DNA of 64,000 nt from Hormiphora californensis (lineage: Eukaryota > Animalia > Ctenophora), in NCBI GenBank assembly GCA_020137815.1, contig CM035355.1, positions 7,316,001-7,380,000 on the forward strand. Direction: 5' to 3'. Each line of letters opens with the position of its first letter. Positions within the stretch are counted from its first letter, which is position 1. Below are positions 46-61,900 of this stretch, one piece after another. The notes under the pieces were generated by a model. It saw only the letters and a list, made by a program, of their open reading frames with translations. It had not been told where the DNA came from and searched no databases. The position numbers and the translations under genes were made by a program.

Positions 46-12572
<12,527 letters not shown>

Positions 12573-14886: not shown

Positions 14887-17800
14887 TCAAGAATTAAACC
14901 ATGATGAGCTCCAGGGTGCAGCTTCCCGTTTTCCCGCCGTCGCACTATCAGTCAGTTCTTTAGCCTCTTCCTTTGTTAGTTGCAGCACCGTACTTAGAAC
15001 AGGGACCAACCTCTCCTTCGCAGCCGCATCCTGTAGTACTGACATACTGGAGAGAGAGATGAGGGCGTTATATTAGAACAACACAGGAAAAGTTATGTCA
15101 CCGTTATAGGAATTATCAGTAGGGCTGCTGGTACACTTTTTGTGACCAAAAGGGTCTGACTGAGTCAAGGTTCTGTACATTCATTAGTCACTGGCCTACA
15201 AATTACGGTGAGGATCGTTAACCGATGTATCACATGCACAATCTTTACCTTCAGTAAGATGTTTTTGAGGTATTCCACATTAGTGTTGTCTCGTCCAATC
15301 ATCTTCTCCAGCCTTCTAACCTCAGTTTTTAGCACCATACATTGCTCCTGCGAGGGGAATTATAATAAAGGACTGTATACAACTTTAGACTTTATTATGG
15401 TGAGCAACTAATTCACAGAATGTGTTGGAAAGAAGGAACAATTTGTATTTCAAACTTTTCAACACTACTTTAAACAAATTAATTTGAGTTTGCCGTCAAT
15501 CGTTCCTGATAACTGTGTTAGCATCTATTCTCTAATCTTTTAGATCTCTGTTAGGCCTACTTTAACTTAACTTACGAGTGATATCAGTGAAGAGTTTGTT
15601 GTTGGCCGGCGTGCAACGGGTGTTTTAGGATGACCGTTACGAGTAATTATGACATATGTATCACTAAGAGTGATTTTGAAGACGTGTTAGCAGGAGAAGT
15701 ATTTAGTAATGATTATAAGGGTAGTGATTTGTTAGTGTGCCTTGGGAGGGGTGACACTGTTTGTCCGTCGTCTGTCCATAAACCTCAGTTGTGGCATCTT
15801 CTCAAAGCCTGTTACAACATGCTTCCGGCGTCGGCACCGTTTTCTGTTCCTGGAGACCAGACTGATCTGAGAGAGTCGTTTGCAAAGCTGCACAAGGATC
15901 TGGTTTCCACTATCTCTGCTTTGGTCAAACCTATGGAGAATAGTAGAAGTGATATTGGTGGTGGTGATCCAGAGGAACCGGTTACACCTACGATGAAACA
16001 CTATGTGAATATTAAAACTGGCATCAATGAGGAAGGAGGGCCAGGATTCTGTGCGAAGAAGTGGACTGATGAGGTCAAACCCAAAGTGGAAACTGCGTTG
16101 AAGACGATACCGGTGGTGAGATCCAGAGTGAACAGTGACCATACCCGGCTGTATTTCCCTGATGAAGACCAGATGAAGGAAGCAGAGAAAGTTTTGACTC
16201 CACTTGCACAGGACTGTTCCATGTCATTTTTCTCAGAGGAGGCCAAGAAGCTTGAACCAAAGGTAACTATAAATGATTTGGACCCAGACCTACTGAAAAA
16301 GGAGACTATCCTGGCAGCGATTTTGGACAAGAATGTGGATATCAGAAAACTTTATCATGAGGACAAGAAGTTGAAGGTGGTGTTTGTGAGCGAAAGAGAC
16401 AGGTATGCAGTGATCCAGATGGCTCCAGAGATCCGGAGGCTTTTGTCTACTAACGGGGATAAGATCAACTTGGGTCTTCGGCAACACTTTGTCAAGAACA
16501 GGTATCATGTGATACAGTGTTTTCACTGTCAAGGATTTGGGCATATAGCAGGATCGATTTACTGCCCCCAAAAGGATACTCCAATATGCTGCTTCTGTGC
16601 TGGATCGCATCAGACGAAAGACTGTAGAGCAAAGAAGAACAACGAGACTGGTAGGATGAAATGTGTGAACTGTGAAGTTGGAGGATCAAGAGAGGACAAG
16701 AAGTATTCGAAGACCCATACGGCTTCAAGTATGTGGTGCCCTTCCTACATCAATGAACGAGCACGGCTTATGGAGAGGACTGCAGGTGTAAGCAAAGAGG
16801 AAAAAAACCTGTACTGGACGAGGACCAAGGAGGAACTACACAGGAAAAGACTTGGAAGATTGGGACACTAAATGTCCGCTCTCTTATTAACAAAACTGGA
16901 GGTGTTATTTCGCATCTGGAAGAGGAGGATTGTGATATTTGTCTTATACAGGACTCAGGAGACATTTTTGAAATCAACGGACACTGGAAAACTTCAAGAA
17001 ATCAGAGATAATGGATGGGACATTTTCTCATGCCCCAGAGGAGACAGAGGAGGTGGAGGAATCGGAATACTTTTTCGAGATGGCATAGTTCTTCGGCAGT
17101 GTCCAGTGAAGACCAAGTATAAGTCTTTTCAAGTACAAGAGGTTCTGATCAGTGACAGAGATCAACCGAAGAGAATCTGTAATGTCTATCGTCCTCCGTA
17201 CACACCGAGGTCGAGACTTACAGAAGCAACTTTCCTGTCGGAGTTTGGTGACTACCTTTCCGAGCTTGTTATGAAGCAAGGTACTCCGATCATCGCTGGT
17301 GACCTAAACTTCCAGGTGCAAGATGATAATAACTTCTATGCAAGGAAACTTTTGGAGCTGCTGGATTCATTTGATCTTCAACAAAGAGTACCAATGTTGC
17401 CTACTCACCAGCTGGGAGGAACCTTGGACTTGGTGATAACTACAAGAGAAACTTCTCTAGGTGACATATCCATATTTCCTAATGGTACTACATCAGATCA
17501 CTTCCTAGTACAGTTTGGGATTCAAGTGAGACCTGACCTGTCGAACTCCTGTCTGAAGAAATCAGTGCATCGAGAATACATGGATTACAAGTCAGTGGAT
17601 TTGGAAGGATTTAAAGAGGACTTGCGGAAGGCAGATTTTGAAGGAGGTAGGGATCCAGAGGAGGGCGTGGTGAATTTCTATCGTTGGCTGGAAGGTATAG
17701 TGGAGAAGCGAGTACCGAGGAAACGGGTGAGGACTGGTAAAAAGTTTAAGCCATGGAGGGATGAGGAACTTAGAGGATTACTTCGAGAGAGGAGGAATGC

Positions 17801-20800
17801 AGAACGGTGTTGGCGGAAACTTGGAACTGTGGATGCGAAACGGAGATTTAATGACCTGAAGAAACTGTATGGAAAGATGGATAGGGAAAAGAGGTCACTT
17901 TTCATTAAAGAGGACTTGGTTGCTGCCAAAGGTGACCCAAAGAAACTGCAAAGTAAGCTCCAGAAACTCCTTGGAAAAGCTGAAACAATTCTTCCTGAAA
18001 CAACAAACACCAAGAACTTGGCAGATGATTTCTCCCAGTTCTTTAGTTCCAAAGTGGAAAAAATTCGAACCCAAGTCAATGAGGAGCAGAAGCAAGCTGG
18101 CGACTTTGAGGAACCCGGAAAAGCCTGTCATTCAACATGGAAGGAATTCAAAGAGATATCGGAGGAGGAACTTGTTAAGGTGGTGAAGTCTATGTCAAGC
18201 AAACATTGTGACCTTGATCCGTTGCCCACTTGGGTAGTAAAGGAGTGCATTAGGGATCTTGCTCCGGTATTAACATCGATGGTAAACCAATCTCTACATC
18301 AGTCTACAGTTGCAGAATCTCTCCAGAAAGCTATCGTGTTTCCTACCATCAAGAATCTGTACGGAGATAGGGAAGCTCTCAGTAACTATCGTCCTGTCTC
18401 AAATATCCCATTCCTTTCTAAGCTCCTAGAAAAGGTGGTGCTCACGCAGCTGAATGAGTACCTTGAAAGCAATTCACTTCTGGGCAAGCATCAATCCGGT
18501 TATCGTGCTGGTCACAGTTGCGAAACTCTGTTAGCCAGCATGTTTGATGATGTATTAGGTGAGATGGATAAAGGAAATGTTGTTGCTCTGATCTGTTTGG
18601 ACATGAGTGCCGCATTTGATACGGTGGATCATGAAAAGTTGTTGGAGGTGTTGCAGAAACGGTTTGGAGTGGATGGTGATCCTCTTCAATGGTTTAAGAG
18701 CTACCTGAGTTCCAGATCTTTTAGAGTCTCGGTTGGTGATTGTCTCTCGGATACCCTGGCCTTACTCTGTGGAGTGCCCCAGGGGTCTCTTCTTGGTCCT
18801 ATTTTGTTTCTACTTTACATTGAAGCTGTGCAAGATATTGTGGAACCATATGGACTCCGGATAAAGTTATATGCAGACGACTCCCAGCTCTATGTGAGTC
18901 TGGTTCCTACGGATTCTACTGGCTGGTCTAGGACGAAGGTGGATATTGAGGAGTGTCTGGCGAAGGTGAAGCGGTGGATGGTGGGGCAGTGGTTGAAGTG
19001 TAATGAGGCCAAAACGGAATTCATCCTGCTTGGAAAGCGCAGTTCTTTGAGTAAAATCTCTTTCGATCCAGTTATCAACTTTGGAGGAACAGAAATCTTC
19101 CCCAGTGAATGTAGTGGAGCAGATGGGAAAACCTTGGGAATACTCTTGGACCACAATCTTAATCTTGAACGACAGGTTAACAATGTGAGGAAACAGTGTG
19201 GGCTGATACTACGGAATCTTTGGCAGTTACACAGATGTTTTGATATTCAAACGAAGATAATGTTGGTGAAACAATTGATTATATCGAGGATTGATTACAG
19301 TAATATTCTGTACTGTGGACTTCCGGCCCGAGTTCTTGGTGGACTCCAGAAAACACTAAACTCCTGTGTACGCTTTATATTCAACATCCATGGGCATCAG
19401 GAGGATTACTCGGAATACTTCAGGCAGTGTCATATTTTACCCATCTCCTACAGACTGGACTTCAAAGCCTGTCTAATCGCTTATAAGATAGTCTATGGAA
19501 CGGCACCAGGTTACCTCCAGGAGATGGTTCCTCTTGATAAAAGCTGGGGAGTCTCCAGGACAACAAGGATGACTAGTGTTATTGATCCTTACAGATTAAA
19601 ACACCCCAAGATGACCAGTATCAACGCCAATTCTAAACTGAGACGTAGGAGACTATCAGTATTTCTGCCTGCTATTTGGAATGAGCTACCCCTCGAGTTA
19701 AGGTCGATCCCCAACGTTGATACCTTTAAAGCTCGCCTGAAAACACATCTCTTCGTTGGTGCATTTGGAGTGAGTGATGGGGAACCCATGGCTGAGTTGT
19801 AATGTTTGTTGTAGTTGTGGGGTCTGCGGGCAACCAGTGTCATCCTCTCTCTAGTCATGTTATTAAATCACTATCTGGTATCCTTTTTTGAGCAGGTGTG
19901 AGTATAGCGTGTTTAAAATTATATCTACAGGTTTATGGGACCAGTTATTCCCCCAGTTTGATAAGTCCAGTTAATTTGGTTTTCCATATATTGTCTTTTT
20001 CAACCAGAATTGTTCGTGTGCGATATTTTTACTCTAGGATATACCGCTCTGATGACTCGTCGGAACATCGCCAATATTTTGACATGTTTCCGTCGGGTAT
20101 GGGCGGTATATAAGCGCGGAATATTATTATTATTATTATTATTTATTTTGTACTTAGCTCCCGGAAACGGTCGAGCTGGAAATCATTTACAAAGAAAAAA
20201 GGGTTCGATAATTGATTGTTTAATTTTCATTCAATAAAACTAATACCTGTAGGGCAGCTGCGTTGTGTTCGCTCTCTCGTAACAGGGTACTAAGATGGGA
20301 TACCTTACTTTGAGTTATGTCATCTTCCTTCGGTGTCGTATCTAGTGGGATCGGGAGGGGGTATATGGATTATGTGGTATATGGGGGTAGCGGGTGGTGT
20401 TGACTGTTGGTTGTACAGGATAGTTGCATGGTATTGGGTACCAGGACCCGTGCCAAAGTCTCAAAGACAAACTAAACTTTGAATTACCTGACATATTAGA
20501 AAATGAAAATCGAGAGTTGGACCGAGAGAGGGCAGAGTTGTTCAGGACTTCCTCAAGACCAGAAATGGAGGGTGCAGGACTTTCTGAACCTTCTGCTCCC
20601 AAGCGTACTTGCTGAGGGTACAATATGGGGTTTGGGGGACTACTACATAAAACACCGCCAGTGAACTGTCTGGCGGCGCCGACCAGATCTGAGCGCCAGA
20701 CAGCCAGTGGGCACACTGGGCAGTGAACAAGGCAAGTATGAATGAAATATCAGACAGTACCTTAGGGCCTACGGGGGTTGAGCACTCTGCTAAATGAGGT

Positions 20801-28761: not shown

Positions 28762-29929
28762 TTGGCATACGTTGCAGGCCCCTTATAATATAATATAAGG
28801 GGCCTGGAGGGAATACCGCGCTAGGGGGGAATACATAATCAATCATATCTCCGGTTCCAGATAAGGTACAGAAATCGTTTTGGTAGCGTTGGAAAGAGGA
28901 AGATAACAGCTTTTAAATGCAACCGGTTTCAGGTCTCTATCTTATCAGGAACAGGAGATATGAACCAAACTCCGCAAAATCGAGTGCGGTAAAATAAAAA
29001 ATTCGAGATTTTAATTCAAATTTGAAACAAAGTGTCCCTGCAGGGACCTGTGACGTCACTTTTTGAAAACAACCAATCTTTGAACGGCTATTGCTCAGCC
29101 TCCTCAAGTCCAATTAACTTCTCTCAAAAACAGCAAGGTAGATAATTGTCAGATCTAACAGCTAGTGAAAGAATCAAGCAAAACGGACTTCAGGGGCCAA
29201 AGTTATTGGCATACGTTGCAGGCCCCTTATAATATAATATAAGGGGCCTGGAGGGAATACCGCGCTGGGGGGGAATACATAATCAATCATATCTCCGGTT
29301 CCAGATAAGGTACAGAAATCGTTTTGGTAGCGTTGGAAAGAGGAAGATAACAGCTTTCAAATGCAACCGGTTTCAGGTCTCTATCTTATCAGGAACAGGA
29401 GATATGAACCAAACTCCGCAAAATCGAGTGCGGTAAAATAAAAAAATTCGAAATTTTAATTCAAATTTGAAACAAAGTGTCCCTGCAGGGATCTGTGACG
29501 TCACTTTTTGAAAACAACCAATCTTTGAACGGCTATTGCTCAGCCTCCTCAAGTCCAATTAACTTCTCTCAAAAACAGCAAGGTAGATAATTGTCAGATC
29601 TAACAGCTAGTGAAAGAATCAAGCAAAACGGACTTCAGGGGCCAAAGTTATAAGCACCGCCGTTTTTTCGACCGCAAAGTTATTTTCGACCCAGCCGGGC
29701 TCAGGCCAAACGCGCGCGCGGCATTCCCTCCAGTCCCCTCGTTGCGGGGGTGCGCGCATGAGGGGGCTGCAGCGCATTCCAACCAAAGTTATAAGCACCG
29801 CCGTTTTTTCGACCGCAAAGTTATTTTCGACCCAGCCGGGCTCAGGCCAAACGCGCGCGCGGCATTCCCTCCAGTCCCCTCGTTGCGGGGGTGCGCGCAT
29901 GAGGGGGCTGCAGCGCAGCCGCATTCCAA
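28762..29929. mobile_element. Non-autonomous TIR element (MULE-like) with both ends tandemly duplicated
   Basis: ~444-bp unit x2 (starts 28762, 29206) followed by a ~132-bp unit x2. Imperfect TIR TTGGCATACGTTGCAGGCCCCTTAT / ATGAGGGGGCTGCAGCGCATTCCAA. Flanking direct repeat AAATTCAGT at 28753-28761 and 29930-29938. Confidence 0.75.
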
Positions 29930-36300: not shown

Positions 36301-39300
36301 CAATACACAGGGAGAGATGGAAGTTCAACTTCTATCACAGATGCCCCACTCCTCCCCCACAGTTGGCCAAGTGCCCAGTATTCACCACATTTGGCCCAGT
36401 GCACCCCCCGCGCCATAAGCTAAATAGGTCATTATACTCACGGGATCTGAGAGGCGGTCCAAGTTGTCAAAAGAATATCTGCGTGATGTTGTTGAAATAG
36501 AGAAAGGGGGGGGCATATAACCATGGTAACCACCTATAACCATGGTAACCACGTATAACCATGGTAACCACCTATAACCATGGTAACCACACATAACCAT
36601 GGTAACCACCTTTAACCATGGTAACCACATATAACCATGGTAACCACCTATAACCATGGTAACCACCTTATATGCCCATGGTAACCATCTATAACCATGG
36701 TAACCACCTATAACCATGGTAACCACCTATAACCCTGGTAACCACCTATAACCATGGTAACCACCTTATATGCCCATGGTAACCATCTATAACCATGGTA
36801 ACCACCTATAACCATGGTAACCACCTATAACCATGGTAACCACCTATAACCATGGTAACCACGTGTAACTACGGTAACCACCTGGGGTGGCCCCTGCACC
36901 TAGCGATCGAGGTGCCGCGAAGTGGCGCCGAGGGAGCTGCGGCAGGGGGTTTGGGGGGCGCAGCCCCCCAACGGGGTCCAGGGGCAGAGCCCATGGTGGG
37001 GGCTAGGGGGCGAAGCCCCCGAAAAATTTTAGTTTTTGGTGAATTTTAAGCATTTTAGAACAACTTTTTTTAACAATTTTCAGCCCTTTTAGAAAACTTT
37101 TTCAACGAGTTTCAGTCATAAGGGGCGAAGCCCCCTGGAAATTTTAAAATGAATTAAAGCAATTAGAACAATTATTTATCGATTTCAGCCCTTGGTGGGG
37201 GCAATTTTCAGCCCTTTTAGAAAACTTTTTTAATAAGTCTGAAACTGTTCTGCCAGGAGGAGTGTCAGACGGAAAGTTGGCAGGGGATTTTGCAGAGTTC
37301 TTCAGTGGGAAGATTGAGAAGATTCGGACAGCGGTTCGGGATGAGCAAGAGGAAGGTTCTGAGGAGCTCACTGTGGATTCTCTGCCTGCGCCTACCTGTA
37401 CTCTAACCAAGTTTGAGGAAATCAGAGTTAATGAATTAGTTCGGGTTGTCAAGGAATGTCATCGAAGTCTTGTGATCTGACCCTATTCCGACGCTGGTTG
37501 TGAAAGACTGCCTTGAAGAACTAGCGCCGATCCTGACGGACATTATCAACAAATCCCTCTACGATCTACTGTTCCAGATATTATGCAGAAAGCATTGGTG
37601 ATGCCAACGATAAAGAACCCCAATGGGGACACTGATTATTTTCGAACTACAGGCCGGTTTCTAACATATCGTTTGTATCGAGGTACTGGAGAAAGTTGTT
37701 GCTCAATCAGTTAAACTCATACCTATGGATGAACGACCTACTCAATGCAGACCAATCTGGTATAGGGCGGGGCATAGTTGTGAAACACGCTTGCTGGAAT
37801 GTTTGATGACCTGTTGAAGGATTTGGATTCTGCAAGTATCGGCCCTTCTGCTGCTTGACATGAGTGCGGCTTTCGATACTGTGGATCATTCGAAGCTGAT
37901 TGGAATTTTGGAGGCAAGGTTTGGGTAAGAGTCTGCGCTTGAATGGTTTAGAAGCTACCTTAGCAAAAGGACTTTTAAAGTGAATGTTCGTGGGGAACTC
38001 TCGGCGGCGATTGCACTAATCTGTGGAGTCCCACAGGGGTCCCTTCTTGGACCTGTTTTATTCTTGCTGTACATTGAGGAACTTCAGGATATTGTTCGTC
38101 CCTATGGCCTAAAGATCAAACTGTATGCAGATGACTCTCAGATATACTTTGGACTGGTTCCGAGTGATGCAGAGGGGTGGAGTTCCAGTAAAAGACCCTA
38201 GAGGATTGTCTCAAGATGTCAAAACATGGATGGTTACCATGGCTTAAGTGTAATGAGGACAAGACGGAGTTTCTACTGTTGGGAAAGACAAGCTCCTTGG
38301 AAAGATGGCATTTGATCCAGAGATCCAGTTGGAGGTTCGGTGTCAGGCCTATGGAATGTAAGGGGACGACAGGAAAGACCCTTGGTGTTCTCATGGACCA
38401 TCAGTTGACTCTTGAGAGACAGATATTCAATGTTAAGAAACAGTGTGGCCTTATGCTCAAGAACTTGTGGCAGGTCAACAAGTGTCTTGACAAAGATACC
38501 AAGATTATGTTGGTCAAGCAACTGGTCATTTCCCGGATTGATTACTGCAACATTCTTTACTATGGACTACCTAAGAGGATATTGAGGTATCTTCAGAAGA
38601 CCCTGAATTCTTGTGTGCGTTTCATTTTCAATCTAAAGGGACATCAGGATGACTACACAGAATACTACAAGGAGGCACACATTCTACCTATTAGCAGAGG
38701 CTGACTTTCAAGGCATGTCTTTTGGCGTACAAGATTGTACGAGGCACTGCACCCAAGTATCTGATGGACCTGGTCCCTCGTGATGACAATCTGAACTGTA
38801 AAACTACCCGATCTACCTCAGTTCCAGATTTCTTCAGGTTGAAATATCCAAAGCTCTCAAGTGTAAATGCGAATTCTAAGTTAAGAAGGAGGAGGATCTC
38901 TGTATTCCTGCCGGAAGTGTGGAACTCCCTGCCATTGGAGTTAAGGTCTGTTCACCCTGTTGAACTCTTCAAGACAAGGCTTAAGACCCGCTATTTAAGG
39001 AAGCTTTCGTTGATCCAGAGAGCAGTAGCACCTGAGTCATCGTCTTGTGCACTGTTCTGTTCTGGTCTGGGTTTAGTGTTCCCTTGGGCAGACGTTTATT
39101 TAGACAGTGTTATTCCTCATTACATTTACCGGGCTTGCAGTAATAGCTGCTGACTTTTAATAGCTTTGAGAGCTGCTGTCTTTGAGTAGCATGAGAGCTG
39201 CTGACTTTGTAATTTAGCTTATTCAGTGTGAGAGCATTTTTATGCCTATCTAAGTTGGTTCGTATTTTATGAGGCCCGTATTTTCATCAATAAAAGTCTA

Positions 39301-41850
39301 TCTATGGTGTGTTTAAATCCAGATTTTAATAGTGTGTGTCATAAGTAAGGAAGGTGTTATAATTTAGGTATACCGCTCTGACGCTGAGCAGTGTCAGTCA
39401 AAATTCAGTTTGCTGGCCCTGTTTTGCCTGGGCGGTATACAAAAACTTATATTATTATTATTATTATTATTATAATATTCAGCCCCTGGTGTGGGTAAGG
39501 GACGAAGCCCCCGGAAAATTTTAGTTTTTGATCAATTTTAAGCAATTTGAACAATATTTTAACGATTTTCAGCCCTTGATGTGGGTTAGGGCAAAGCCCC
39601 GGAAAATTTTAGATTTGATCAATTTAAAGCAATTTAGAACACTTTTTAAAGCTATTTTACCACCCCCAACAACCCCTGTTTGAAAAGTTTTGGGGGGGGG
39701 GGGGTGGCCACCCCCCACCACCCCAGGCTGGGGCCACCACTGCCACCTATAATAACCATGGTAACCATGTTTACTACGGTAACCAGTATAACTGCCTATA
39801 GGGTATACTAACACAGCTGCAGTGACGGATCTGTTCCCAAGGGTAATCGCCGGTGCTAGTTAAACAAACACATATCAGCTTGTTAAAATATTCTATCAAG
39901 GCCGAATTTTACTACATCCCCTGCTGCATTATATATCCCAACAATGAAATCTAAATTTAACCTCCTTTTATTAAAACATTCTTTTATCATGTTTTTAAAA
40001 TATTGCTACAGCAGTTCGCTCCGGCTTAAACGCACATTCACACACATATCGCTAGCCCCTGTTTTCCAAGCTTTCGAGTCGTTTATTACTATTTCTCTCT
40101 CTTTCCCTCTCCCTAGCCCTCTCTTTCTCTCAAGACAGCAATTTTAAACATGTCATCTTTCACACTTGACCACGTATATTACACTGATAGAGAGAGAGAG
40201 AGAGAGAGAAAGAGGCAAAGAGAAAGAGAGATAGAGAGAAAGGAAAAGAGAGAGAGAGATAGAAAAGTGAGATAGAGAGAGGAAAGAGAAAGAGAAAAGA
40301 GGAAGGGAATAAAGTCAATTCTACATGCATATAATACTGAGAGAGCTTTAATGCTAAACACACGCAGCTAAATTCTCAGTCCTCAATCACCATGAAACCT
40401 CATTATTTACCCCTTTCTCTATTAACAGGTGCCTAGACATGTTTGGTGTTTATGAATTTTTTCTCTTTGTGTGTACAGGTTGTTCGTCTGTATGTGTGTG
40501 TGTTTATGAATTAATTTACAATTGTTTGTTTGTGTTGTGTATTTTTCAACACACAGTCCATGTGTACAAGACACCACGTGTGTACATTTTATAGGCTTCG
40601 TATTTCCCTACACACACTCACTTACAGACACGAACAGTGTATAAAAGTAGTAAATTATCTCATACAGCAGCTGTAGTGAGAGGACTCAGCACCATCTCTC
40701 CCGTAAAATGCAACATTATACTTTATGTCACAGTCTCGGCACGGTGTGACATGGAATTTACAGTGCAGTGTATGTGTGTGTGTGTGTGTGTGTGTGTTTT
40801 CATGAATGTACTAGTTGAAATTAGCCAGTTAATGACCGTAAAGCATGGTAAATGCAAATTTTCTCTCTCTCTCACACACACTCTCTTTCCAATTCAGTAT
40901 TCCTTTCTTGTATCTCTCATTCTGCAATACATTTACAATATAGCAAGGGAGTACATCAACTAACAGTCACCAACACATCCATGATAATCGAGGATTACTT
41001 TGGGGAGGGAGAAATAAAGTAGCTTCTGACGTACGTCTAGATACTATCGCTACATAAATAGACAGAAAGTCGAGGCTTGAGGGGTATACCCACCCAGGTA
41101 GTGGGGTAAGCTCACGAGAGGGGACAGTGTGTCGAAACAGAAATTCAACTCTCAAGGGGGACATTGATCTGACCAGTACAACAACCCTTCCTACCTAAAA
41201 TTAATCTGCCTTGAAGGAGGGTCTTCATGTTTCTGACAATATTATGGATTATGGGGATTTTGCACCTCGTCAGATCATCTGCCTCATAACCCTGGGGGGA
41301 TGAAGTTTGGAAATGAATGACGAATAAATAGGAATTACAATGATAAAGATAATATACTAGTCATGATTAGATCAATATATTCATAATATTCCATCTACCT
41401 AGGTGGAAGTAATAATGATTTAATAAACGATAAGGAATAGCCGTGAATATGCATTTATTTATAAATATGAAGCGGCTACTTACGGGTCCATGGATAATCC
41501 TCATCTGCTTCAAGAACGTACTCTTTCCGCTCTCCCCGGCACCAAGCAGTAACACCTTCACCTGTGTAGACATATTGTGTGAAAGGGAATCCTGCTTGTC
41601 ACTAACTTCCCATTATTTAGTCTAACCTAAGCCTTGCTCGACCATGTCTCACCGCACCCCGGTTTGACCAAAACAAGAAGAATATATTCAAACCGTGAAG
41701 CGGTATCTGTTTTCATGGTGAGCTGCCATCACCTCCGATACATACTATCAGCCGGGGTACCTGTTTTCGAAGGGTTTGTTGCTCTCTACGCAGATCATCA
41801 TCTATCTTCTTGCTCTCCTGTGACTGCTCATCCTGCACGCAGCAAGGCAT
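31264..41850 (-). CDS. GNA13: Heterotrimeric G-protein alpha subunit, G12/13 class
   Basis: Exons: 41850-41761 (MPCC...[11 protein letters not shown]); 41561-41484 ([22 protein letters not shown]); 41291-41195; ~36480-36441 ([10 protein letters not shown]); ~34144-34062 ([14 protein letters not shown]); ~33761-33640 (DVGGQR...KWFKCFD); 31632-31264 ([27 protein letters not shown], the G12/13 C-terminal signature). Part of the helical domain was not resolved. Confidence 0.9.
33136..33460. mobile_element. ~74-bp perfect inverted repeats enclosing a (GA)n tract (MITE-like)
   Basis: ATGCCAAAAACTAACAGAAATTAG...CACCTTTGCCC (33136-33209) and its reverse complement (33387-33460). Confidence 0.75.
34184..34292. 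mobile_element. 109-bp hAT-type MITE
   Basis: TIR CAGGAACCGACCGAA / TTCGGTCGGTTCCTG with a perfect 8-bp TSD AATTGAAG at 34176-34183 and 34293-34300. Confidence 0.92.
36516..36881. repeat. Minisatellite (TATAACCATGGTAACCACC)n, ~19 copies; resumes at ~39743-39790
   Basis: Directly visible 19-bp units. Confidence 0.95.
36882..39742. mobile_element. Non-autonomous DNA transposon (hAT-like, GC-rich ends) split by a LINE
   Basis: Imperfect TIR CTGGGGTGGCCCCTG / CTGGGGCCACCACTG. Internal GGGGCGAAGCCCCC...AAAATTTT repeats on both sides of the LINE. No clear TSD. Confidence 0.6.
37233..39473 (+). pseudogene. 5'-truncated, frameshifted L2-group LINE (divergent subfamily)
   Basis: Fragmented ORF2 ([51 protein letters not shown]) homologous to the 16853-19802 ORF2, with many indels. 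3' UTR ends GGGCGGTATAC followed by (ATT)n. Confidence 0.9.
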
Positions 41851-44230: not shown

Positions 44231-46916
44231 ATGGAAGCCGTAAGATTTGCCAGGTTAGTTAAAACTTTTTTAACAATTTTTTAAAACAATTTGAATACCC
44301 TTATTCTCATTCTTTGCAATTTCATTTTTGCAATAATATTGCGTTTTCAAGAAAGTTGTGTCATGTGCTTTGAAACAATATAAAAAGCTTGTTCTGTCTT
44401 CTTCACCGTTCTCTCATTCCTCAATCTCTATCAGGAGGCTTGTATCGGAGAACAATGATGAAGATGAAGATCCACTGAGTTTGAGTAAAATGACCACTCC
44501 AACAAACCACGATTACCTGAAAACTCCAACTAAAGCCCCGCCAACTACTTCAACCCCTACCAAGCTGTACATGACCAATGTGGGAATGCTGAAGGCATCT
44601 CTCCGGCCTACCAAATCCCTTAGTCCTCCTATGGTATGATCACTAACAAGCTCCTCACTCACTCACCCTGCTCCTTTATAAATCTCACTCCTCACTCACC
44701 CTGCTCCTTCATAAATCTCACTCCTCACTCACCCTGCTCCTTCATAAATCTCACTCCTCACTCACCCTGCTCCTTCATAAATCTCACTTTGAGAACGGAT
44801 TCTCTCTCTCAGACCTGGCTTTTATTATGCGAGATGCCGGGTATTATATTTCCCCTGACAAAGACCACGCCGTGTCATCCACTCACTATTTTCTTCTCTT
44901 TTCAACTCTTTTAGGGTCTTTGTGTTTGAACCTTCTCGCAGCGGACTGGTTATCTCTCAGAAATCTCAATCATTCTCTTGCATTGTATCTCGTGTTAGTG
45001 GCATTCATTTTTCTTCCCATCTCCCTGTTTATTTCTAAATTTACCCTCTCCTGACAGAGTGAGACAAGAGAAACGGGGATTTAGTGACACAAAGCCCCCC
45101 ACATAGCTTGCGAAACTTAACCACTTTTTGAGAGAGAGGGAGCGAGAGAGGGTGTTTACCTTTGATTACCTTTGACAAGGTTTAGCTGAAGTAGCTTGGA
45201 ATCCACTTTAGTAATGGACCCGTTGGAATGTTCCTGCTGGTCAATAGTTAACAACAGGAACACTATAGCAAACAAAGAAGGCAATTTAATGAAATAAATG
45301 AAAAGAAGAAACTTAAATGAATAGCACTCACAGTAAGTACTACTGTGTCCCCGAGGAGACCTCCACCACCTCGCCTCCTTTGATCCTAAACGACTTCCCA
45401 GGGCTCCGCTCCTTCTCCTCTTTCAACTTTTTCACTAGGACCGCCCGGGCCACTCTCTCCTCAGAAGTAAGGTCGGGAGAGATGTAAACTCGGGAAAACA
45501 ATTCACTCTCTCTAAGTCGTGTCTTCTTACTAAGAATACACGACTGCATCTCCTTGCTTGCCAGGGATATCTTCATGGGTCTAGTCTGACCCGCTATGAA
45601 TCTCCCCAACCGCTGAGCACTCTTTACCAAGGGCTTCTCTGCCAGCGTTGTCCACAACTCCGGTAGTAGTTCCTCTTTGTCTCCAGGACTGTCAGTCAGT
45701 CCGTAGATGACAATGTTACACGATCTGTCCTCGCTGGCTGCAGCTACAGCCCGCTGTATCCGTTGAGGAGCGAGGGATGTCTTACACTCCTTCTCCAGAA
45801 CAGTAGAGAAGCTTCGCATCTCCTCCTTTGCCGTTGTCTTCACATCAGTGATGACTTGCTCTCTCTTCTCAAGTAGTTGCTCCTGCAGCTTCACTAACTG
45901 CGCCTGGGCTCCGACCAATGCTCTTTGAGCAGAGATTAGTTCCTCCTGACGCTCCATCAACTTCTTCTCTACCTCACTACACTTCTTAGCTACACTATAC
46001 TGGCTCTTCATCACAGGGTACACCCTCTCAATCAATAGCCTTCCTGCCATCTCCACCCACTCAACTAAATCCTTCTGACTCACTTTTTCAAGTTTATACT
46101 TGGATGGGGTGGACAAGGAGTCCCACAAGCTCTCCTCTGCACCGTTATATTCTCCACTAAACACGCCCGTACTTGGACGCGTTCCAGCCATCGCCATGAG
46201 TGCCTCAATCAATTCGACAGTTTCAACATGAATATTTTCAAGCTCAATATCATTCAATGACTGGCTGCCACTCACCCTCACTCGACTAGTATTCCCACTC
46301 ATAACGGTGAGAGGGGGCCGTTAGCTATAAAGATAAAGCAAGAAGGGTGAAAACGAGAGCAGCGACCAATCTTGCAAAGGAAGTAGAAAAGAGAGAGAAA
46401 GAGAGCGAGAAACAGAGAGAGAGAGAGAGGGAGAGAGGGAGTGAGAGAGAAACGAGTATGGTTAGCAGTGACATCCACCGCTACCTCTCTTAAATTCGTA
46501 TTCCACATTTTGTTTGCTAGAATGTTGCTCCTTGGCTTCCGACTTTAAATTCAATCTCCTCGATCCACTGCAGGCACTCTCTCTGTTCGATGCAAACCTT
46601 CAATCTTGAGGTAGCAGTAGTTACAACGTGTGTGTAAATTGGCTCTTGTCCAAATCAAACAACGACCACACAACTCTCTCACATGCACCACCATGTGTAG
46701 CGGTCTCTGTGTTGTTTTATGGGAACGGAATTAAAATTGATATAACATACATAAACATAGAACAGTATCAAATATATACAGAGTTATAAAATTAATCCTG
46801 TTTTCAATTTCAGAAACTCAAGACCCCAAGTAGACTGTCATCCTTCGTCCATTCCCTACCACTGTGTGATAGCGAGGAAGCGATGAGCGAAGAAGATGAC
46901 TCTCCTCAACGAGCAG
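44231..46916 (+). CDS. 5' exons of an unidentified spliced gene (S/T/P-rich N-terminus); probably continues rightward
   Basis: Exons 44231-44253, 44435-44633 and 46814-46916 join in frame with GT-AG sites: MEAVRFARRLVSENNDEDEDPLSLSK...SPPM|KLKTPSRLSSF...DDSPQRA. A possible further exon lies at ~53840-53966. Confidence 0.55.
44651..44788. repeat. 33-bp tandem repeat, about 4 copies
   Basis: CTCCTCACTCACCCTGCTCCTTCATAAATCTCA units. Confidence 0.95.
45340..46302 (-). CDS. Intact LINE ORF1-type protein (coiled coil + RRM/CTD of CR1/L2 ORF1) with no adjoining ORF2
   Basis: 320 aa intronless ORF: heptad region, then RSCNIVIYGL, RLGRF, RPMKI and VYISPDLTSEER motifs typical of CR1/L2-type ORF1. Only ~190 bp follow before an AAAGGTAA(TC) duplicated tail and GA-rich DNA. 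Confidence 0.8.
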   Translation of the reverse strand: MSGNTSRVRVSGSQSLNDIELENIHVETVELIEALMAMAGTRPSTGVFSGEYNGAEESLWDSLSTPSKYKLEKVSQKDLVEWVEMAGRLLIERVYPVMKSQYSVAKKCSEVEKKLMERQEELISAQRALVGAQAQLVKLQEQLLEKREQVITDVKTTAKEEMRSFSTVLEKECKTSLAPQRIQRAVAAASEDRSCNIVIYGLTDSPGDKEELLPELWTTLAEKPLVKSAQRLGRFIAGQTRPMKISLASKEMQSCILSKKTRLRESELFSRVYISPDLTSEERVARAVLVKKLKEEKERSPGKSFRIKGGEVVEVSSGTQ

Positions 46917-47153: not shown

Positions 47154-47943
47154 TATTCATCCGTTATGTCTAATTACTGTAAGACTCCAATTAGGTTTAA
47201 TACGCTATATATTGCTTTAAACCGTTCATAAAACTACACTAGTCTTAGTCTTACTCCTTGATTTGTACTGTCTAGTAGTACACTCTGCCTATACATTATA
47301 ATGGCCGAACCGCAGCTGTGAAATTCCTACCAGGTGCATGCAGGGTGCTAGAACAGTGTTGTGTCATTTGTCCTTTTATCACGGCTATGTAGTGCCGTCT
47401 CGATTATTAAATAGTTTAGGCTCTATCTAAACATGATCTAGATTATAGACATGATTTAGACTTGATCCAGACACATGTGTTGTGTAGCAAGATACACTCC
47501 TTCCGGCTTTCACACACACTCCACCATCTCATCTCAACTTCCTTGGTTTCTAGTTTGATACATTCCACCAACTTCCTAGGTCACATTGCCATTTTAGGGA
47601 GATAGAGACTTTTGTGTAACAGGTATTTTAGTGGTGTGTTACAGAAGTAGGTTAGTACACCTGGTACACCAACCTTGTACCAAAATCAGAATTTGGGATG
47701 GATGGGGGATATAAAGAGAGAGCATGGAGGAGGAAGAGAGATATTGAGGGAGAGAGATAGGGAAGAATGAAAGGATATATGGCTTGTTATTAGGCTTACA
47801 GCTTTTGCTCACAGTAACTGATATTACATCTAGGTTCCTAGCTGCGTGACACACACACACTAGGTTTAATAAACACTGGCTGTATCAACAATAAATTGTG
47901 GGATGGGAGATCATGATCCAGTGATTGAATGAAGAGCTTCCGG

Positions 47944-47988
<45 letters not shown>

Positions 47989-47989
<1 letters not shown>

Positions 47990-50226
47990 AGGTATTTAAC
48001 TGCTGCTTCAAGCAAGGCATTTACCCCTGGAACGCCAGTATAATCACCCCGCTCCATAAAAAAGGGAGTACAAAGAATCCGGACAACTACCGAGCGGTCT
48101 CCGTGAGTAGTGCAATTGGTAAGCTAATGAGTTGCATATTACTGGAACGACTAAAGGAGTTCAGAAGTATCAAATGTCCTGACCACCCCAACCAACTTGG
48201 TTTCCGGAAGAAGTGCCAGACGAACGACCATATCTTCACAATGCTGACACTTACCCAGAAAGCTAAACAGCAAAAGAAACCCCTGTACGCAATAATGGTC
48301 GATTTCCGCAAGGCTTTCGATAGCATTCCAAGAGAGGCACTTTTCCTAAAACTAGCAAGGATGGGAATCACCGGGAATTTTTACAACATTCTAAGGGATA
48401 TGTATGGAAAATCCTCAGGGAGAATCAAGCTATCAGGCCATGTAAGCAGGGAGTTCCCTATCAGAAAGGGGACCGAACAAGGGCACCCACTCTCACCTGA
48501 GTTGTTCAAGATTTTCTTGTACGACATGTCCCCACTCCTGGATAAAGGGACTGACAGCAGTGAGAATCCATCCCTCAGAAATATCAAGGTGACACACCTC
48601 CTGTTCGCCGACGATCTGATTATGCTCTCCCTTTCGAGAAAGGCTGCCCAAAAGCAGGTTAAAATACTTTGCAATTATTGCTCAACCTGGGGGCTAGAAA
48701 TGAACCTCGGAAAGACCAAGCTACTTGCTTTCAATGAGATTGATAAAGCCCAAAAACAACCCATATACCTATCCAGCACAGAGAAACTTGACGAAGCACC
48801 CAGCTACTGCTACCTGGGCATCAAAATGACATCCTCTGGAGACTTCAGTATTGCCTCAAGAGCAGACCTCCACCTCAAAGCCACCAGAGCAGTATATGGA
48901 CTCAAGAGGACCATTAGGAGAGACAAGGTATCCTTCAGTGCTGGGAGAGCGCTATTTAATTCACTGATCAAGCCAATTCTACTGTATGGAGCTCCAATTT
49001 GGGCACCTATGGACACCACGGTATCTCGGATCATCAAGGAGTCAGTACACGGGGAAGCCAACAGCAGCCTTCTTCGAAAGATCTCAGCCGATAAATCTGA
49101 ACGACTCCTGCTCTCCTACCTGAAATGGCTCACAGGCGTTCATAGCAAAACACAGAATGCAGCAATCTGGGGTGATAGTAATACCATCCCCCTCAATGTG
49201 GAAGCACTCGACATAACTGTCAAGTACCTATCCAGGATTAAAACCCTCGATCCAACCTGGCTGGTCAATGCTGCATACCATGAGCAGAAGAACCTTGGAC
49301 TACCCTGGTACAGATCATTAGTTCGACTCCTTAACACTGACCCCCTCTATAGATTGAACCACTTTGATGCCCTGGAAATCAAGGAAGGACGGAGGAAAGA
49401 ACCGGAATTACCAAAAGTTAAACCCGCCCGAGCACAGACCCACGCCCCGAGTAGAATCTTCAGAGTCCCCTTAATTCAACAAAGAATTGCATCAACTTAT
49501 TCCAAAGCCTGGAGAAACACTATCACTACCTCAAGGAAACTCGACTTCTATCAGAACTTCGACCGGGAAAACGGTGTACAATCCTACCTGGCTAATGTAA
49601 CGAATTTTACCCATCGAGCAGCCCTGGCCAAGCTGAGAATGAGCTCACACTCCCTTAACATTGAAGTAGGGCGTCACCAAGGAATCGCCCGGGAGAATAG
49701 AAACTGCCCATACTGCAACATCACAATGGGTATAAGCATAACGGAAACCGAGCTCCATGTGATCGACACCTGTGACCTCTACAACCCGGAAAGACAGACC
49801 CTGCTAACCGACCTCCCCAAAGGACAAGACCCCTCCCAGCCCATTCCCATTATCTCCTCGATCATGTACACCACATCAGAGCATTCACCTCGAACCTCCG
49901 GGCTCCTTGCGCGTTTCGCCAGCGCTATCGAGTGCAAGCGCGAGCGTTGGATGTCATCAATGACACCTCCCACTTAGCTTTCTCCCCTGTACTAGCTAAG
50001 AAGTGGCAGCAGGCTCCTTTTGTTTAAGACCCCCTTCAGCGTTTATTGTTTTAATACCTAACGACCCCGGAATTTATATGTGTGTGAGTGGATTTTTAAC
50101 TTGATGTTATAAGTTTCACGAACAGGAAAGTGCTGATCAAGGGCAGTGCTCTCCAGTTCTTACACTCATGGGAACATGAGTAGAACTATTTTTCAAACCG
50201 TGTCAAAACCGTGTCAAACCGTGTCA
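47989..50226 (+). mobile_element. 5'-truncated RTEX-like non-LTR retrotransposon embedded in a (CA)n tract
   Basis: Open RT frame to 49977 (NYRAVSV, VDFRKAFDSI, GTEQGHPLSP, LLFADD) with C-terminal LRMSSHSL..E.GR...CPYC...HVIDTC zinc motif. The 3' end is (AAACCGTGTC)x3. (CA)n lies on both sides (47945-47987 and 50226-~50380). Clade is inferred. Confidence 0.85.
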
Positions 50227-56242: not shown

Positions 56243-58914
56243 CTATCTCCCCTACTCAATTTTTTCAAAGAACATCTGTTTTCTCTTGGAGTATTTTACG
56301 ACCCTCCTGAGCCACCTGAGCATGAAAATAAAGGACGTTCAGGGAAATGATAAGCGAGAGAGAGGGGGTAATTTGTGAGTGAGAATGTGATTTCCTTAGC
56401 CGGTTATAGAGCTTTGAGGAAGTTACACTTATGAAAGTAAAGCCATGATACTGAACAGAAGAAGAGTGAGTGATATACAGACTCTATGGAACTCACTCTA
56501 TTATACAATCGAGTGAGATATAGAGTTAGATACAAGAGAAGATAGGGAGGGGAAAAAACATGGGAGGTTGTTTAAACACTTTTTTAGTCTGCTTTTTTTT
56601 TTTTCCCGTTCTTTTTTGCACACTTTTTCCCATTTTCCACTTTTCCATTTTTTTTTCGCCCTATTTTTTGTTTTACAACACAACAAGTAAGAAAAGGGGA
56701 ACAAGTGTCGTTAAACCCCCCCCCCCTTTCCCCTTCTCTATTCTTTCCCTTCTCTCTCTCTCTCTTCCTACTCCTTTCTTTCTTCCCCTCTTTCGTTTCT
56801 CTCTTCTCCTTCTCCCCCTTCTCTCTCTTTCCTTTCCCTTTTCAGTGCACTGGAAAAAAGAAAATTGCAGGAATCAAATTAAGGGGTTATGCATGCTCCT
56901 TTTTCTTCCACCTTTTTTCCCTCTTTTGTTTTCCAAACATCGTCTGAAAAATGTTACACCCCAAATATAACCTTCATCGCCCTTTTGTGAAATGAATCTC
57001 ACACACCCGCCCCCATTTCAAATTTGATTTGAAAAGGCTGCAGAAATGAGATAAAGAGGGAGGTCAGAAAAAGAAAAGAAGAAAAAGAAAACAAAAGAGA
57101 AGTTCTCATTACCGAGTTAAGTGAGATAAGATGAGGTCATTATATTGCTGGAGAGAGATAGAGTGTCTGAGAGAAGTGTGGAAATTGGGGGGGGGCGAAA
57201 GAAAAATATTAGGTCTCTGTTTCCTTCTCTCTTTTTTTTCATATTATACCCTCACTCTCTCTCTCTCTCTCTTCTTCCTCTCTCTCTCTTCTCTTCTCCT
57301 CTTCTCTTCACTTCCATTTTGGGAGAAAGATAGAGACAAAAATGAATTAAAATCGGTGAACAGAAATAGAAGTGAGTCATTTTCATATTTTCTTTTATGA
57401 CGACTCGCCCAAAACTGCTAATTTTTGGGTTTGAAAATCAAGGAAATCGGATGAATTTCATCAATGAAAAAAAGAAGTTTGTTTTCAGAATGTGTTTTTC
57501 CCCCCCCTTTTTCCGGGTACTAATTTACTCATTTTATGCATGAGCTGCACGCCAATCCATTATAATACTCTCTGTTGAATAATACACATCATGTTACAAA
57601 CGAACAAACATCCGGACAACAAAAAATAGTGAAAATATGCATGTTATTACTCACTGCAAATATTCGCCCCGTAGCTCCCTCGTGATCCCAATTTTAGAAA
57701 AACCTCCACTTCCCATCTCCCGACATGACCCTGGCATTAAAGTTCTTATATTTCTGCTCAAGTCTCAACTCATAGACTATTAATCAGCAAAATTCTACAA
57801 TTTCATCACATTATTGTGACGTAATATTTGATCTTAATTTTAGAAAAATCTCCATTTCATATCTCCCTTCATGACACAGTTGTAAAGTGTAAACTATATA
57901 TCCAGGCTCTATAACTGGTATACCAGATCTCATATTTCCGCTCAACTCATAGACTATTAATCAGCAAAATTCTACAATTTCATCACATTATTCCTTACTT
58001 AACATCACATTATATTGTGACGTAATATTATTAACCTATGACGTCACACTGTACTCAGCGTCACCATTCCTGGACACCCTGCTAAGTCTGAGTAAAGTGG
58101 TGGGGGAGGAGTTAGGGAGACCAGCCGCCAAATCTGACCCACCTGACTTGTTCTCCCGCACATCGTCATCAGGTTAAAACTGCAGTAATTAGTAATTAAA
58201 ATATTGTTAAATAACAGTGCAGTAATTAGTAAAATACCATGGTAATCATTGATCAATTATATAGTACATAACGTTCTGCACGCAGTGCAAGCGCGCCATA
58301 TACGCTCTGCACTGCAGAGCGTATATGGAGGTGAAATGCACGACAGCGGAGCTGGAGTGCATTTCACATCTATATTGCACGAGTGAAACGAGTGCGATAT
58401 AGGAGCGCTTGCACATGCCGTGCAGGACGTTATTGAGTATATATTCCGCGAGAAAACACATGACAAGCAAAAACAATCCTAATTTTGGGTGATTACACAC
58501 AGAGAGATGTGACAAAACAAGGTACAAACTAAGCAAAAACAAACCCAAAAATACTAACAGACACTACTACACCGGTTACACACAAGGGAAACAAGGTCAA
58601 ACAGTGAAAAGAAGAGAGAGTTAAAGAGAGAGATGCGAGAGAGGAGATTGGAATTCTTGGAAATAGCAAACAACAAAACGTGATAAGGGGGTAATTAGTG
58701 AGAGAAAGAGGGAGAGTGAGTGTAATTTGACAGACTTTGTGTCGTGTAGTACCTTGTCAGTCATATTCTGTGTGTTTGTGTGTGAATAAGGTGTAAAAAC
58801 ACTTTTCTCACTTATATCCCGCTACCTCTATATCTGCACGCTCCCGCGGAAGCACAGTGCATATTTCAGCGTGCAAATGGTCGCGCACAGCGGGAGTGAT
58901 ATGTGCACTCGCGG

Positions 58915-61900
58915 TATATATATGTTCGCAAAAGGCAAGCTTCCCCTCGTCCGACCCGAAGTTGCTAACATACAGTCCGATATTTAATAATGGGAACCGG
59001 GGGCGCATTAAACAAAATTCGATTTGACAAATATTCGTTTCTCGGTTCAGGATCTAATGGCACACTTTGTTTCGATTGTTAAAGTCCATTTATTTTTCAC
59101 CCAAAAACTTAAATTTAAAACTTTTGTGGCGTGCGCTACACGTTAACTATATTGTTTATAGCAAGAAAGGGCTATTTCACAACGAATTCCCTGGTTACTA
59201 TGGTAACCAACTCCGTTGTCATGGTAAATTAATCGAACTCTATCGAGTCTATCGCCAGCAACTGTATGAAACTTTCACAAAGGCTCAAAGTTTGAATATC
59301 AAATTTGCCAAAACTGTGCAGGGGCAAAAGTTTTAATTGATTATTATTAATTAATTAATTAGAAAATCAAAAATCCGGCTCCGTTATGACTCGTATTTAT
59401 ACTACTAGAACATACATACAAAGTTTCATTTCGAAATTTCAAACGGTGTGGCCACAGTTTGAATATCAAAGTTGCAAAAATTGTGCAGGGGCAAACAAAA
59501 TTGTGCAGGGGCAAAATTTTAATTACTTATAATTAATTGGATAATTAATTTTGACTATTCCCACTTTTTGTCGATCTTTCTATATGCATGAACTACATTA
59601 CTACAAAATTTTAGGTCGTTATTTATAGCAGAACAGAAAATATACCATTTTTAGTTGCCTTGTTCAGGAAATGTGCAGGGGGTCGAAATCAGCGGTGCAG
59701 GGGAAAGATGGTGCAGGGGCAAAATTTTAATTACTTATAATTAATTAGTTAAATTAAAAATAAGAAATCCAGCCTTTTTATGACTCGTAGTTATACTACT
59801 AGAACATGCATACAAAGTTTCATTTCGAAAAAACAAACAGTTTGGCCACAGTTTGAATATCAAAATTGCAAAAAATGTGCAGGGGTATTTGCCCCTGTAC
59901 ATTTTCAAAAAAAGTGCAGGGGGCCCTAAAAAAGTCAATTTTTGCATGCCTATAACTAATTAATTAATTAATTATCAATACTCCCACTTTTCGAATATCA
60001 TTTTTTATGATTGAAGAACATTCCTACAAAGTTTCAAGTCGATATTTCAAGCAGAACGGAAGATAAACCGTGTGCAGGGGCACGCGTGCAGGGGCAAAAA
60101 ATCAAAATGTACAGGGCAATGTGCAGGGGCAAATTTTGATAGCTTATAATTAATTAATTAATTAAAAAATCAAAAATCCGGCCACGTTATGACACGTAGT
60201 TATACTACTAGAACATGTCTACAAAATTTCAGGTCTATATCTCAAACGATGTGGCCGCAATCGCTGCCTGAAATTTGCCCCCCCCCCCCCCCCCCCCCCC
60301 CCGAAAATCTTCTATTCTTTGTATATATGTTCGCAAAAGGCAAGCTTCCCCTCGTCCGACCCGAAGTTGGAATCATATGGGTTTAGTTTGTCGAACCGGC
60401 AAGTTGCTAACATATTTCAAGTCTTCACTACTTCTCAAATGATCTAATCCCATACATTCAGTCTAATACCAAAATAAAATTGTAAATCCTATTAAAAATA
60501 GAGACAAAAATAATGGCACCAAAATGTGAAATGCCCTTGTAGTTAGTGGGAGCAGAACAAAATCAATTTCTTATCTCACCACGTTAATAAATAATTAATT
60601 AAGTTGATGCTCTTATTTGTTTTAGAGGTGCTCAAGTTCTACCGCCAGCCACTGGATGAAATTTATCCATTTCATTGTGCACAATGCACAGGCTTTGGTT
60701 ACGAAGTTACCCCTTGCCAGCGCGTGCAAAGGTCGCCCGGCGACAGAGTGTGAGGTGTCTTCGATACCAAGCACAGGCTTGTGTAACAAAAAGGGGCATT
60801 TTTATAGCTTATTGTTCATCATAACCTGAAATAAATAATTTTCATTACTTTCACAAAGGCTCAAAGTTTGAATATCAAATTTGTGTAGGCGCAAATTGGT
60901 GCAGGGGCAAAAGTTTTAATTGATTATTATTAATTAATTAATTAGAAAATCAAAAATCCGGCTCCGTTATGACTCGTATTTATACTACTAGAACATACAT
61001 ACAAAGTTTCATTTCGAAATTTCAAACGGTGTGGCCACAGTTTGAATATCAAAGTTGCAAAAATTGTGCAGGGGCAAACAAAATTGTGCAGGGGCAAAAG
61101 TTTTAATTACTTATAATTAATTAATTAATTAAAAAATCAGAAATCCGGCTCTTTTATGACTCGTAGTTATACCACTAGAACATGCATGCAAAGTCTCATT
61201 TCGAAATATCAAACGGTGTGGCCACAGTTCGAATATCAAATTTACCGAAAATGTGCAGGGGCAACATTTGCCGCAAATGTACAGGGGCAAAATGTGCAGG
61301 GGCAAAATTTTAATTGCTTATAATTAATTGGATAATTAATTTTGACTATTCCCACTTTTTGTCGATCTTTCTATATGCATGAACTACATTACTACAAAAT
61401 GTTAGGTCGTTATTTATAGCAGAACAGAAAATATACCATTTTTAGTTGCCTTGTTCAGGAAATGTGCAGGGGGTCGAAATCAGCGGTGCAGGGGAAAGAT
61501 GGTGCAGGGGCAAAATTTTAATTACTTATAATTAATTAGTTAAATTAAAAATAAGAAATCCAGCCTTTTTATGACTCGTAGTTATACTACTAGAACATGC
61601 ATACAAAGTTTCATTTCGAAAAAACAAACGGTTTGGCCACAGTTTGAATATCAAAATTGCAAAAAATGTGCAGGGGTATTTGCCCCTGTACATTTTCAAA
61701 AAAAGTGCAGGGGGCCCTAAAAAAGTCCATTTTTGCATGCCTATAACTAATTAATTAATTAATTTTCAATACTCCCACTTTTCGAATATCATTTTTATGA
61801 TTGAAGAACATTCCTACAAAGTTTCAAGTCGATATTTCAAGCAGAACGGAAGATAAACCGTGTGCAGGGGCACGCGTGCAGGGGCAAAAAATCAAAATGT

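Follow-up and report, generated by a model that had tools for sequence, protein, structure and literature searches.

A conserved slippery heptamer at the ORF1-ORF2 junction of a LINE family with a member in Hormiphora californensis: comparative evidence for programmed -1 frameshifting

A full-length APE-type LINE in the ctenophore Hormiphora californensis probably expresses its second open reading frame (ORF2) as a C-terminal extension of the ORF1 protein (ORF1p), by programmed -1 ribosomal frameshifting at a conserved slippery heptamer. The element lies in a stretch of 64,000 nucleotides (contig CM035355.1 of assembly GCA_020137815.1, positions 7,316,001 to 7,380,000), here called the window, in whose coordinates all positions are given unless a relative is named. 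Comparison with related elements shows the heptamer to be a real conserved feature and, as far as sequences can speak to mechanism, makes a strong case that a wide LINE family uses programmed -1 frameshifting. It is from the arrangement of the frames, their conservation and the lack of start codons that we infer slippage, a fusion protein and the ratio of the two products.

Organisation of the element

The element occupies approximately 15448-20142 on the forward strand and has the marks of a LINE, i.e. a short-repeat 3' end, 5'-truncated sister copies and no LTR. On its motifs it is tentatively placed in the L2/CR1 group. Its features are as follows, with relatives numbered L001 to L025.

15448..15488 (+): copy of the spliced leader at the element's 5' end, matching the printed ctenophore leader at 41 of 41 bases
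15489..15629 (+): 5' UTR, no ATG; the first ATG past the leader is at 15630
15630..16871 (+): ORF1, 413 aa, with three Cys/His zinc knuckles (about 16518-16739) and a TAA stop at 16869-16871; Cys/His columns invariant in alignments
16757..17011 (+): open -1 frame of the window copy with the endonuclease N-terminus and no ATG; the Asn of NVRS is 16871-16873
16802..16808 (+): slippery A_AAA_AAC heptamer in phase with ORF1, where a -1 frameshift is likely; unchanged in contigs of four runs
16802..16871 (+): dual-coding overlap, comprising the ORF1 C-terminal tail (20 codons past Asn) and the -1 linker into the endonuclease
16809..16825 (+): segment just past the heptamer with complementarity to the tail hairpin's 3' strand; candidate long-range partner, weakly supported
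16949..16955 (+): copy-specific 7-nt insertion breaking ORF2; absent from run contigs and the sole ORF gap relative to L001
16956..19802 (+): ORF2 body (remaining APE endonuclease, reverse transcriptase), otherwise open; PF03372, PF14529 and PF00078 above cut-off
20044..20106 (+): predicted 3' tail hairpin, of which 20086-20102 could instead pair with 16809-16825; predicted in all seven tail-bearing elements
20122..20142 (+): (TAT)n 3' end repeat

The leader printed for H. californensis is 44 nt long, and bases 15448-15488 match its last 41 (PMC8527503, in the part that prints the sequence). Similarity of the window element to L001 and L005 likewise begins at 15448, and the presence of the leader at the 5' end indicates that the window copy is 5'-complete. 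A spliced-leader-like head, exact or variant, occurs in eight of the 25 relatives (L001, L004, L005, L006, L008, L010, L013 and L015), in every one of which the following ATG is in the ORF1 frame; GT stands immediately 3' of the leader in three relatives. The preliminary description of this DNA had remarked that an ORF1-ORF2 fusion would suit a spliced-leader-capped mRNA, and the leader head fits that remark, being compatible with a capped mRNA scanned to ORF1. The final AG of the leader could act as a trans-splice acceptor, by which the same 5' end would be rebuilt in every cycle.

Pfam scans returned no match for ORF1, RRM domains included, and no protease family in the three frames; an Rfam scan of the window gave no match, and no convincing target-site duplication was found around the element. 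The inner sequence of the tail hairpin differs among the seven elements that carry it. In L2-type LINEs the reverse transcriptase recognises such a hairpin, and the one predicted here may act likewise.

Further copies are present in the window. A 5'-truncated sister at 8945-10560 (-), 89% identical and open at its reverse transcriptase end, differs from the full copy by four changes in the 5' strand of the tail hairpin and none in the 3' strand. A third copy at 37235-39480 (+), 5'-truncated and frameshifted, belongs to a related subfamily nearer L005 and has a tail hairpin of like type and a (TAT)n end. Other retroelements are represented by a reverse transcriptase-bearing ORF of 682 aa at 47929-49977 (+), unrelated to the LINE, and by a separate ORF1-like frame of 326 aa at 45340-46320 (-). 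Complex tandem and segmental repeats lie at 58900-62300, 28762-29651 and 36516-36883.

The junction in the window copy

The reading frames at the junction are as the preliminary description had set them out. The endonuclease N-terminus (KIGTLNVRSL...DICLIQ) is encoded in the -1 frame relative to ORF1, in a frame that opens after the TGA at 16754-16756 and contains no Met before the motif, and the ORF1 codons GAA AAA AAC at 16800-16808 place the heptamer in the phase required for tandem slippage. In the contigs of four out of four sequencing runs, from four studies, the heptamer shows neither substitution nor indel, although such contigs omit rare variants, whilst neighbouring places vary. L001, 85% identical to the window element, aligns over both ORFs with a single gap, away from the A-run. 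Together these observations rule out the concern that an assembly error in the length of the A-run had fused the two frames.

That single gap is a 7-nt insertion in the window copy, which had previously gone unnoticed. The seven bases are missing from the contigs of all four runs (two samples) and from the relatives; they are either a private insertion or an assembly error, two readings that the contigs do not separate. The insertion moves the remainder of ORF2 into the ORF1 frame, so that the -1 frame of the window copy stops at 17009 and this copy could not make the full fusion. The junction thus stands as described, in a copy that is itself broken. An ORF of 976 aa at 16872-19802, considered as an AUG-started ORF2, was rejected because it exists only through the insertion.

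Conservation of the junction at the nucleotide level

Copies for comparison were drawn from sequencing-run contigs and from metagenome loci, the latter scanned by ORF1 alignment, with 80 loci kept of 182 confirmed. The window element and L001-L025, which combine an ORF1 match with a related endonuclease start, constitute the family (n = 26), and the other 55 loci were set aside. No relative was found among viral contigs, and prokaryote genomes yielded one short match (L081), which was left out. The family is probably a ctenophore one. Long low-complexity inserts separate endonuclease and reverse transcriptase in L005 (2732-3075) and L016 (3010-3197), both in frame, and a further such stretch is present at the 3' end of L002.

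The preliminary description had proposed that the heptamer and the overlap be sought in the family, and both proved to be conserved. ORF2 lies in the -1 frame relative to ORF1 in 26/26 elements (L007 ends early and L022 is broken further on), and an in-phase slippery site is found at the same place, 16-31 codons 5' of the endonuclease Asn, in every one: A_AAA_AAC in 16, A_AAA_AAU in two, U_UUA_AAC in five, C_CCU_UUU in one and U_CCU_UUU in two. The strict X_XXY_YYZ rule accounts for 24 of the 26, the U_CCU_UUU of L023 and L024 having been chosen by eye afterwards. Upstream in ORF1, in-phase XXXYYYZ heptamers occur at only 13 of 8926 codons of the family, a background against which 24/26 at the junction (strict rule) exceeds chance. 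The three slippery classes track the endonuclease tree (24 rows, L007 and L022 being too short to include), on which U_UUA_AAC and Y_CCU_UUU form separate, well supported groups, although long branches meet between these two classes.

More distant LINEs present a different picture. None of the 15 set-aside loci with an endonuclease motif has a heptamer in the overlap, and their frames are mixed. One different LINE group (L039, L040, L042, L060, L063 and L071) lacks both a heptamer and any Met ahead of the endonuclease motif; its members have 'ITxNLxI/L' in common there, perhaps with a conserved non-AUG start.

Constraint at the heptamer exceeds what the protein needs. Amongst the 18 A-type elements the Lys codon is AAA in 18, against 362 of 778 Lys codons upstream, and the preceding codon (GAA, ACA, GCA or TCA) ends in A in all 18. 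The six A's are therefore fixed in 18/18, whereas the third base is kept in none of 46 conserved degenerate columns of upstream ORF1, and four-fold sites have come close to saturation (median identity 0.30, range 0.10-0.74). The Asn codon is AAC in 16 and AAT in two, and across the 17 aligned A-type elements the invariant part of the site is the run of six A's. The elements are related and their counts not independent, for which reason these counts are given without a combined P value.

The -1 frame itself behaves as would be expected if ribosomes entered it at the site. It contains stops at 152 of 1560 codons before the heptamer and at 0 of 449 between the heptamer and the ORF1 stop (26 elements), and in 16/26 it closes within three codons 5' of the heptamer, which places entry at or after the site. 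The absence of a conserved in-frame ATG for ORF2 is borne out in the family: no ATG precedes the endonuclease Asn in 19/26 elements, those of the other seven occupy scattered positions, and no near-cognate start codon is common to the 26.

Distribution at the protein level

All 24 rows of an ORF1 alignment have Lys-Asn at the junction position. A profile search over 50% clusters was used to follow the dipeptide more widely; of the best 150 of 8117 matches, 130 had a recognisable third knuckle and 20 were dropped. Lys-Asn occurs 16-25 aa past the third knuckle in 104 of these 130 representatives, compared with about 10% in windows elsewhere, in a survey whose profile contained the Lys-Asn columns and whose sequences are known as protein only. 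From Lys-Asn to the stop there are 0-20 residues in the 104, and the residue before the dipeptide lacks an A-ending codon in 0/104, as against 113/464 for Lys-Asn elsewhere. Since Ser is the commonest preceding residue (56) and no DNA stands behind these sequences, the survey adds little independent proof and mainly indicates range. The relatives of named origin belong to Pleurobrachia bachei (70% identity) and Mnemiopsis leidyi, both ctenophores, and distant relatives bear a PHD finger (PF00628).

A weak search for natural in-frame ORF1-ORF2 fusion proteins found none among 7991 candidates. Three NCBI gene models from Mnemiopsis (P0170, P0208 and P0209) either fuse ORF2 to ORF1 at Ser-Lys-Asn or let ORF2 begin from an internal Met, and all three are without the first endonuclease motif. 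They are likely annotation workarounds for a frameshift; the joined models, which differ in join point and have lost that motif, were not counted as evidence of fusion.

Search for a stimulatory element

High-level frameshifting nearly always requires a stimulator, according to the sections of a recoding review that deal with it (PMC5009743). The preliminary description had suggested folding the sequence past the heptamer for a stimulatory stem or pseudoknot, and no such stem was predicted in the window, in the 26 elements or in the alignments. Local 3' structure gave z values of -1.1 to +1.1 in the window and a mean of +0.29 over the 26 elements, with none below -2; consensus folding gave 0 pairs in ten elements and, in six, a weak, non-covarying fold with a positive covariation term. 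Neither a stem-loop nor a stable first stem for a pseudoknot was predicted 5-9 nt past the heptamer. Hairpins beginning at the first base past the heptamer, noticed by eye in some elements, were discarded with 0 consensus pairs.

Three of the five U_UUA_AAC elements carry a GC-rich hairpin 9-11 nt past the heptamer that ends near the ORF1 stop (L018:758-790, L019:1309-1341, L021:1059-1088), a layout more classical than that of the A-type elements; its whole-window z is not significant. In the 17 aligned elements, UA (of a Tyr codon) at +4/+5 and G at +15 past the heptamer (16812-16813, 16821-16823) are invariant, and are candidates for a linear stimulator or for a protein constraint.

Pairing of the bases behind the heptamer with the 3' tail was modelled in the seven elements that have both a junction and a tail hairpin of the window type. 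Bases 1-24 past the heptamer paired with the last 28 of the element's own tail hairpin better than with permuted partners (p 0.0012), as did bases 6-26 (p 0.009), for windows that were chosen after looking and elements that are kin. The pairing was in the top 0.7-2.5% of element windows in 5/7 and ranked first of 250 offsets by mean energy and third by cognate advantage. However, two elements, L006 and L016, do not show it (45% and 54%), bases 6-26 have weaker support from shuffling (Fisher 0.076 and 0.013), the local tail hairpin beats the long-range pairing on co-folding in 4/7, and the pairing starts within the ribosome footprint. Another candidate pairing, of GACGAG (16817-16822) with the tail hairpin's 5' strand, was abandoned, being only 6 bp long and absent in L003 and in the second copy in the window. 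The modelled pairing with the tail is thus a weak hint, which we treat as a lead only.

Proposed route of ORF2 expression and its alternatives

Programmed -1 frameshifting would operate as follows. The RNA, as the leader-headed copies suggest, would be trans-spliced and capped, ribosomes would scan it to its first AUG (15630), and most of them would end ORF1 in the observed frame at 16869, releasing the 413-aa zinc-knuckle protein. In a minority, tRNA-Lys and tRNA-Asn on AAA AAC would slip back by one base, and translation would continue through a linker of about 20 codons into the endonuclease, giving in an insertion-free element a fusion of about 1,390 aa (393 + 47 + 948). With no protease detected, this fusion would presumably stay uncut, an outcome that would set the ratio of ORF1p to ORF2 protein (ORF2p), low for the fusion, and would tie the enzyme to an RNA-binding protein on its own RNA. 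The stimulator appears not to be a local hairpin; the heptamer might suffice for a low rate by itself, or be helped by a linear element on its 3' side, by a protein bound to the RNA or by base pairing with the tail.

One alternative is that ORF2p is made separately, by reinitiation or from a non-AUG start after or inside ORF1, the heptamer having some other use. In the parts of two reviews that treat LINE translation (PMC2881922, PMC3894237), human L1 uses an ORF1-dependent unconventional initiation and SART1 a UAAUG coupling, and in the window the TAA of ORF1 is directly followed by ATG (16869-16874), as it is in L001-L005. This ATG, however, is in frame with ORF1, arises incidentally from the Asn-Val codons and in each of the five relatives begins a frame of just 5-30 codons, so that no ORF2-frame AUG lies over the ORF1 stop as SART1-type coupling would have it. 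In L006-L025 the stop is 17-71 nt 5' of the Asn codon, no ATG or near-cognate codon is held in common, and reinitiation leaves the fixed A's and the switch between three heptamer classes unexplained; we regard it as very unlikely. A second alternative is that a polymerase slips in the A6-7 run and adds one A, correcting the frame in the RNA. That the six-A run is the invariant part of the A-type sites, with AAT tolerated beside AAC, would suit such slippage. Against it, sister groups have U_UUA_AAC and Y_CCU_UUU at the same place, sites that suit tRNA re-pairing, the longest run in U_UUA_AAC is of three, and an added A should pass into new insertions, yet no indel is seen in the run (in contigs only) and the -1 offset persists in 26/26; this reading is extremely improbable.

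Lys-Asn could also count as protein within the dual-coding overlap, and it may be asked whether the dipeptide is kept for ORF1p function alone, with the overlap inherited without recoding and ORF2 reached through a second trans-splice, an intron or the like. The ORF1 tail does have other conserved residues (Tyr two codons on), the host trans-splices, and two of the Mnemiopsis models join the frames at Ser-Lys-Asn. A protein constraint nevertheless fixes no synonymous bases and explains no Leu-Asn or Pro-Phe versions, and an AUG ahead of the motif would be required even if the ORF2 RNA were spliced or given a new leader; the differing joins of the two models, both lacking the first endonuclease motif, suggest prediction artefacts. 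We give this explanation scarcely any credence. All three rivals fail on the switch among three slippery classes at one position, for which frameshifting at the heptamer accounts.

Discussion

The three classes found here are tandem-slippage heptamers of the kinds (A_AAA_AAC, U_UUA_AAC and U_CC type) that available accounts describe for retroviral gag-pol, coronavirus 1a/1b and flavivirus NS1'. The flavivirus NS1' site is Y_CCU_UUU. The first two are amongst the most shift-prone heptamers, and U_CC is a known exception, in the review passages on slippery sites (PMC5009743). The likeness to gag-pol, which the preliminary description had drawn, extends to a zinc-knuckle RNA-binding ORF placed 5' of a -1-frame polymerase, and a fusion of that kind gains comparative support at the level of sequence. 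It ends at the frameshift, as no protease family was detected; unlike retroviruses, the window element also lacks an LTR and an integrase, no stem-loop is predicted 5-9 nt past its heptamer, and the full fusion could not come from the window copy.

Amongst non-LTR elements the closest parallels are Dictyostelium TRE5-A and TRE3-A, which like the window family have two ORFs with APE and reverse transcriptase. Both require a -1 frameshift for ORF2 according to a figure legend (PMC5911963), and the available part of PMC5006619 adds nothing further on it. The TRE elements differ in host and ORF1, in being targeted to tRNA genes and in ending in poly(A), and the material available for them gives no shift site; the window family, by comparison, conserves a phased heptamer over a wide family, its class changing between subgroups. 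Drosophila HeT-A, also non-LTR, is said to need a frameshift, within gag and with no ORF2; the non-LTR passage of the recoding review (PMC5009743) names only HeT-A, TART and mammalian L1.

With L2/CR1 elements of ORF1 type I the window element has in common three knuckles, an APE-RT ORF2, a short-repeat tail and, in distant relatives, the PHD finger. Type I ORF1 consists of RRMs and three CCHC knuckles, with or without PHD (Metcalfe and Casane 2014, PMC4120745); in the portion available that article does not discuss the ORF1-ORF2 junction, the terms overlap and frameshift being absent from it. SART1 and mammalian L1, as described in the available excerpts, likewise make ORF2 expression dependent on ORF1, with ORF2 a minor product, but they make a separate ORF2p, whilst the present family has no common start codon and its stop-adjacent ATG is out of frame. 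The main text of a 2026 survey of CR1 (PMC13343379) has no mention of frameshift, slippery or overlap, and no report of a conserved heptamer in this LINE group was found in the literature outside subscription papers and Repbase reports.

The possible partner in the tail, about 3.3 kb downstream where copying starts, recalls barley yellow dwarf virus, in which, in the account available, a stem-loop close to the shift site pairs through its bulge with an apical loop far away. In contrast to that virus, the window family has no local stem-loop, its partner strand is already engaged in its own hairpin, and two of seven elements misfit. The joint proposal that a spliced-leader-headed ctenophore LINE radiation both makes its reverse transcriptase as an uncut -1 fusion and has the shift switched by its own 3' tail is one we hold to be unlikely. 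Were it true, the 3' strand of the tail hairpin would pair behind the heptamer, so that enzyme would be made from full-length RNAs only, and enzyme bound to the tail would switch the shift off.

How ORF2 of LINEs is initiated is treated as open or as reinitiation in the sections of the reviews cited above (PMC3894237, PMC2881922). The worked cases, L1 and SART1, point to reinitiation, whilst the comparative evidence presented here speaks for a third route, one that offers a defined position for mutation and a mark carried by at least 104 ORF1 clusters at 50% identity. It would also supply -1 sites from animals that have no obvious stimulator nearby, and would mean that annotations of such ORF2s begin too late or invent introns. 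For the elements themselves the prediction is that ORF2p comes into being already joined to ORF1p, and this would bear on RNP assembly, on cis preference and on the design of LINE-based insertion tools.
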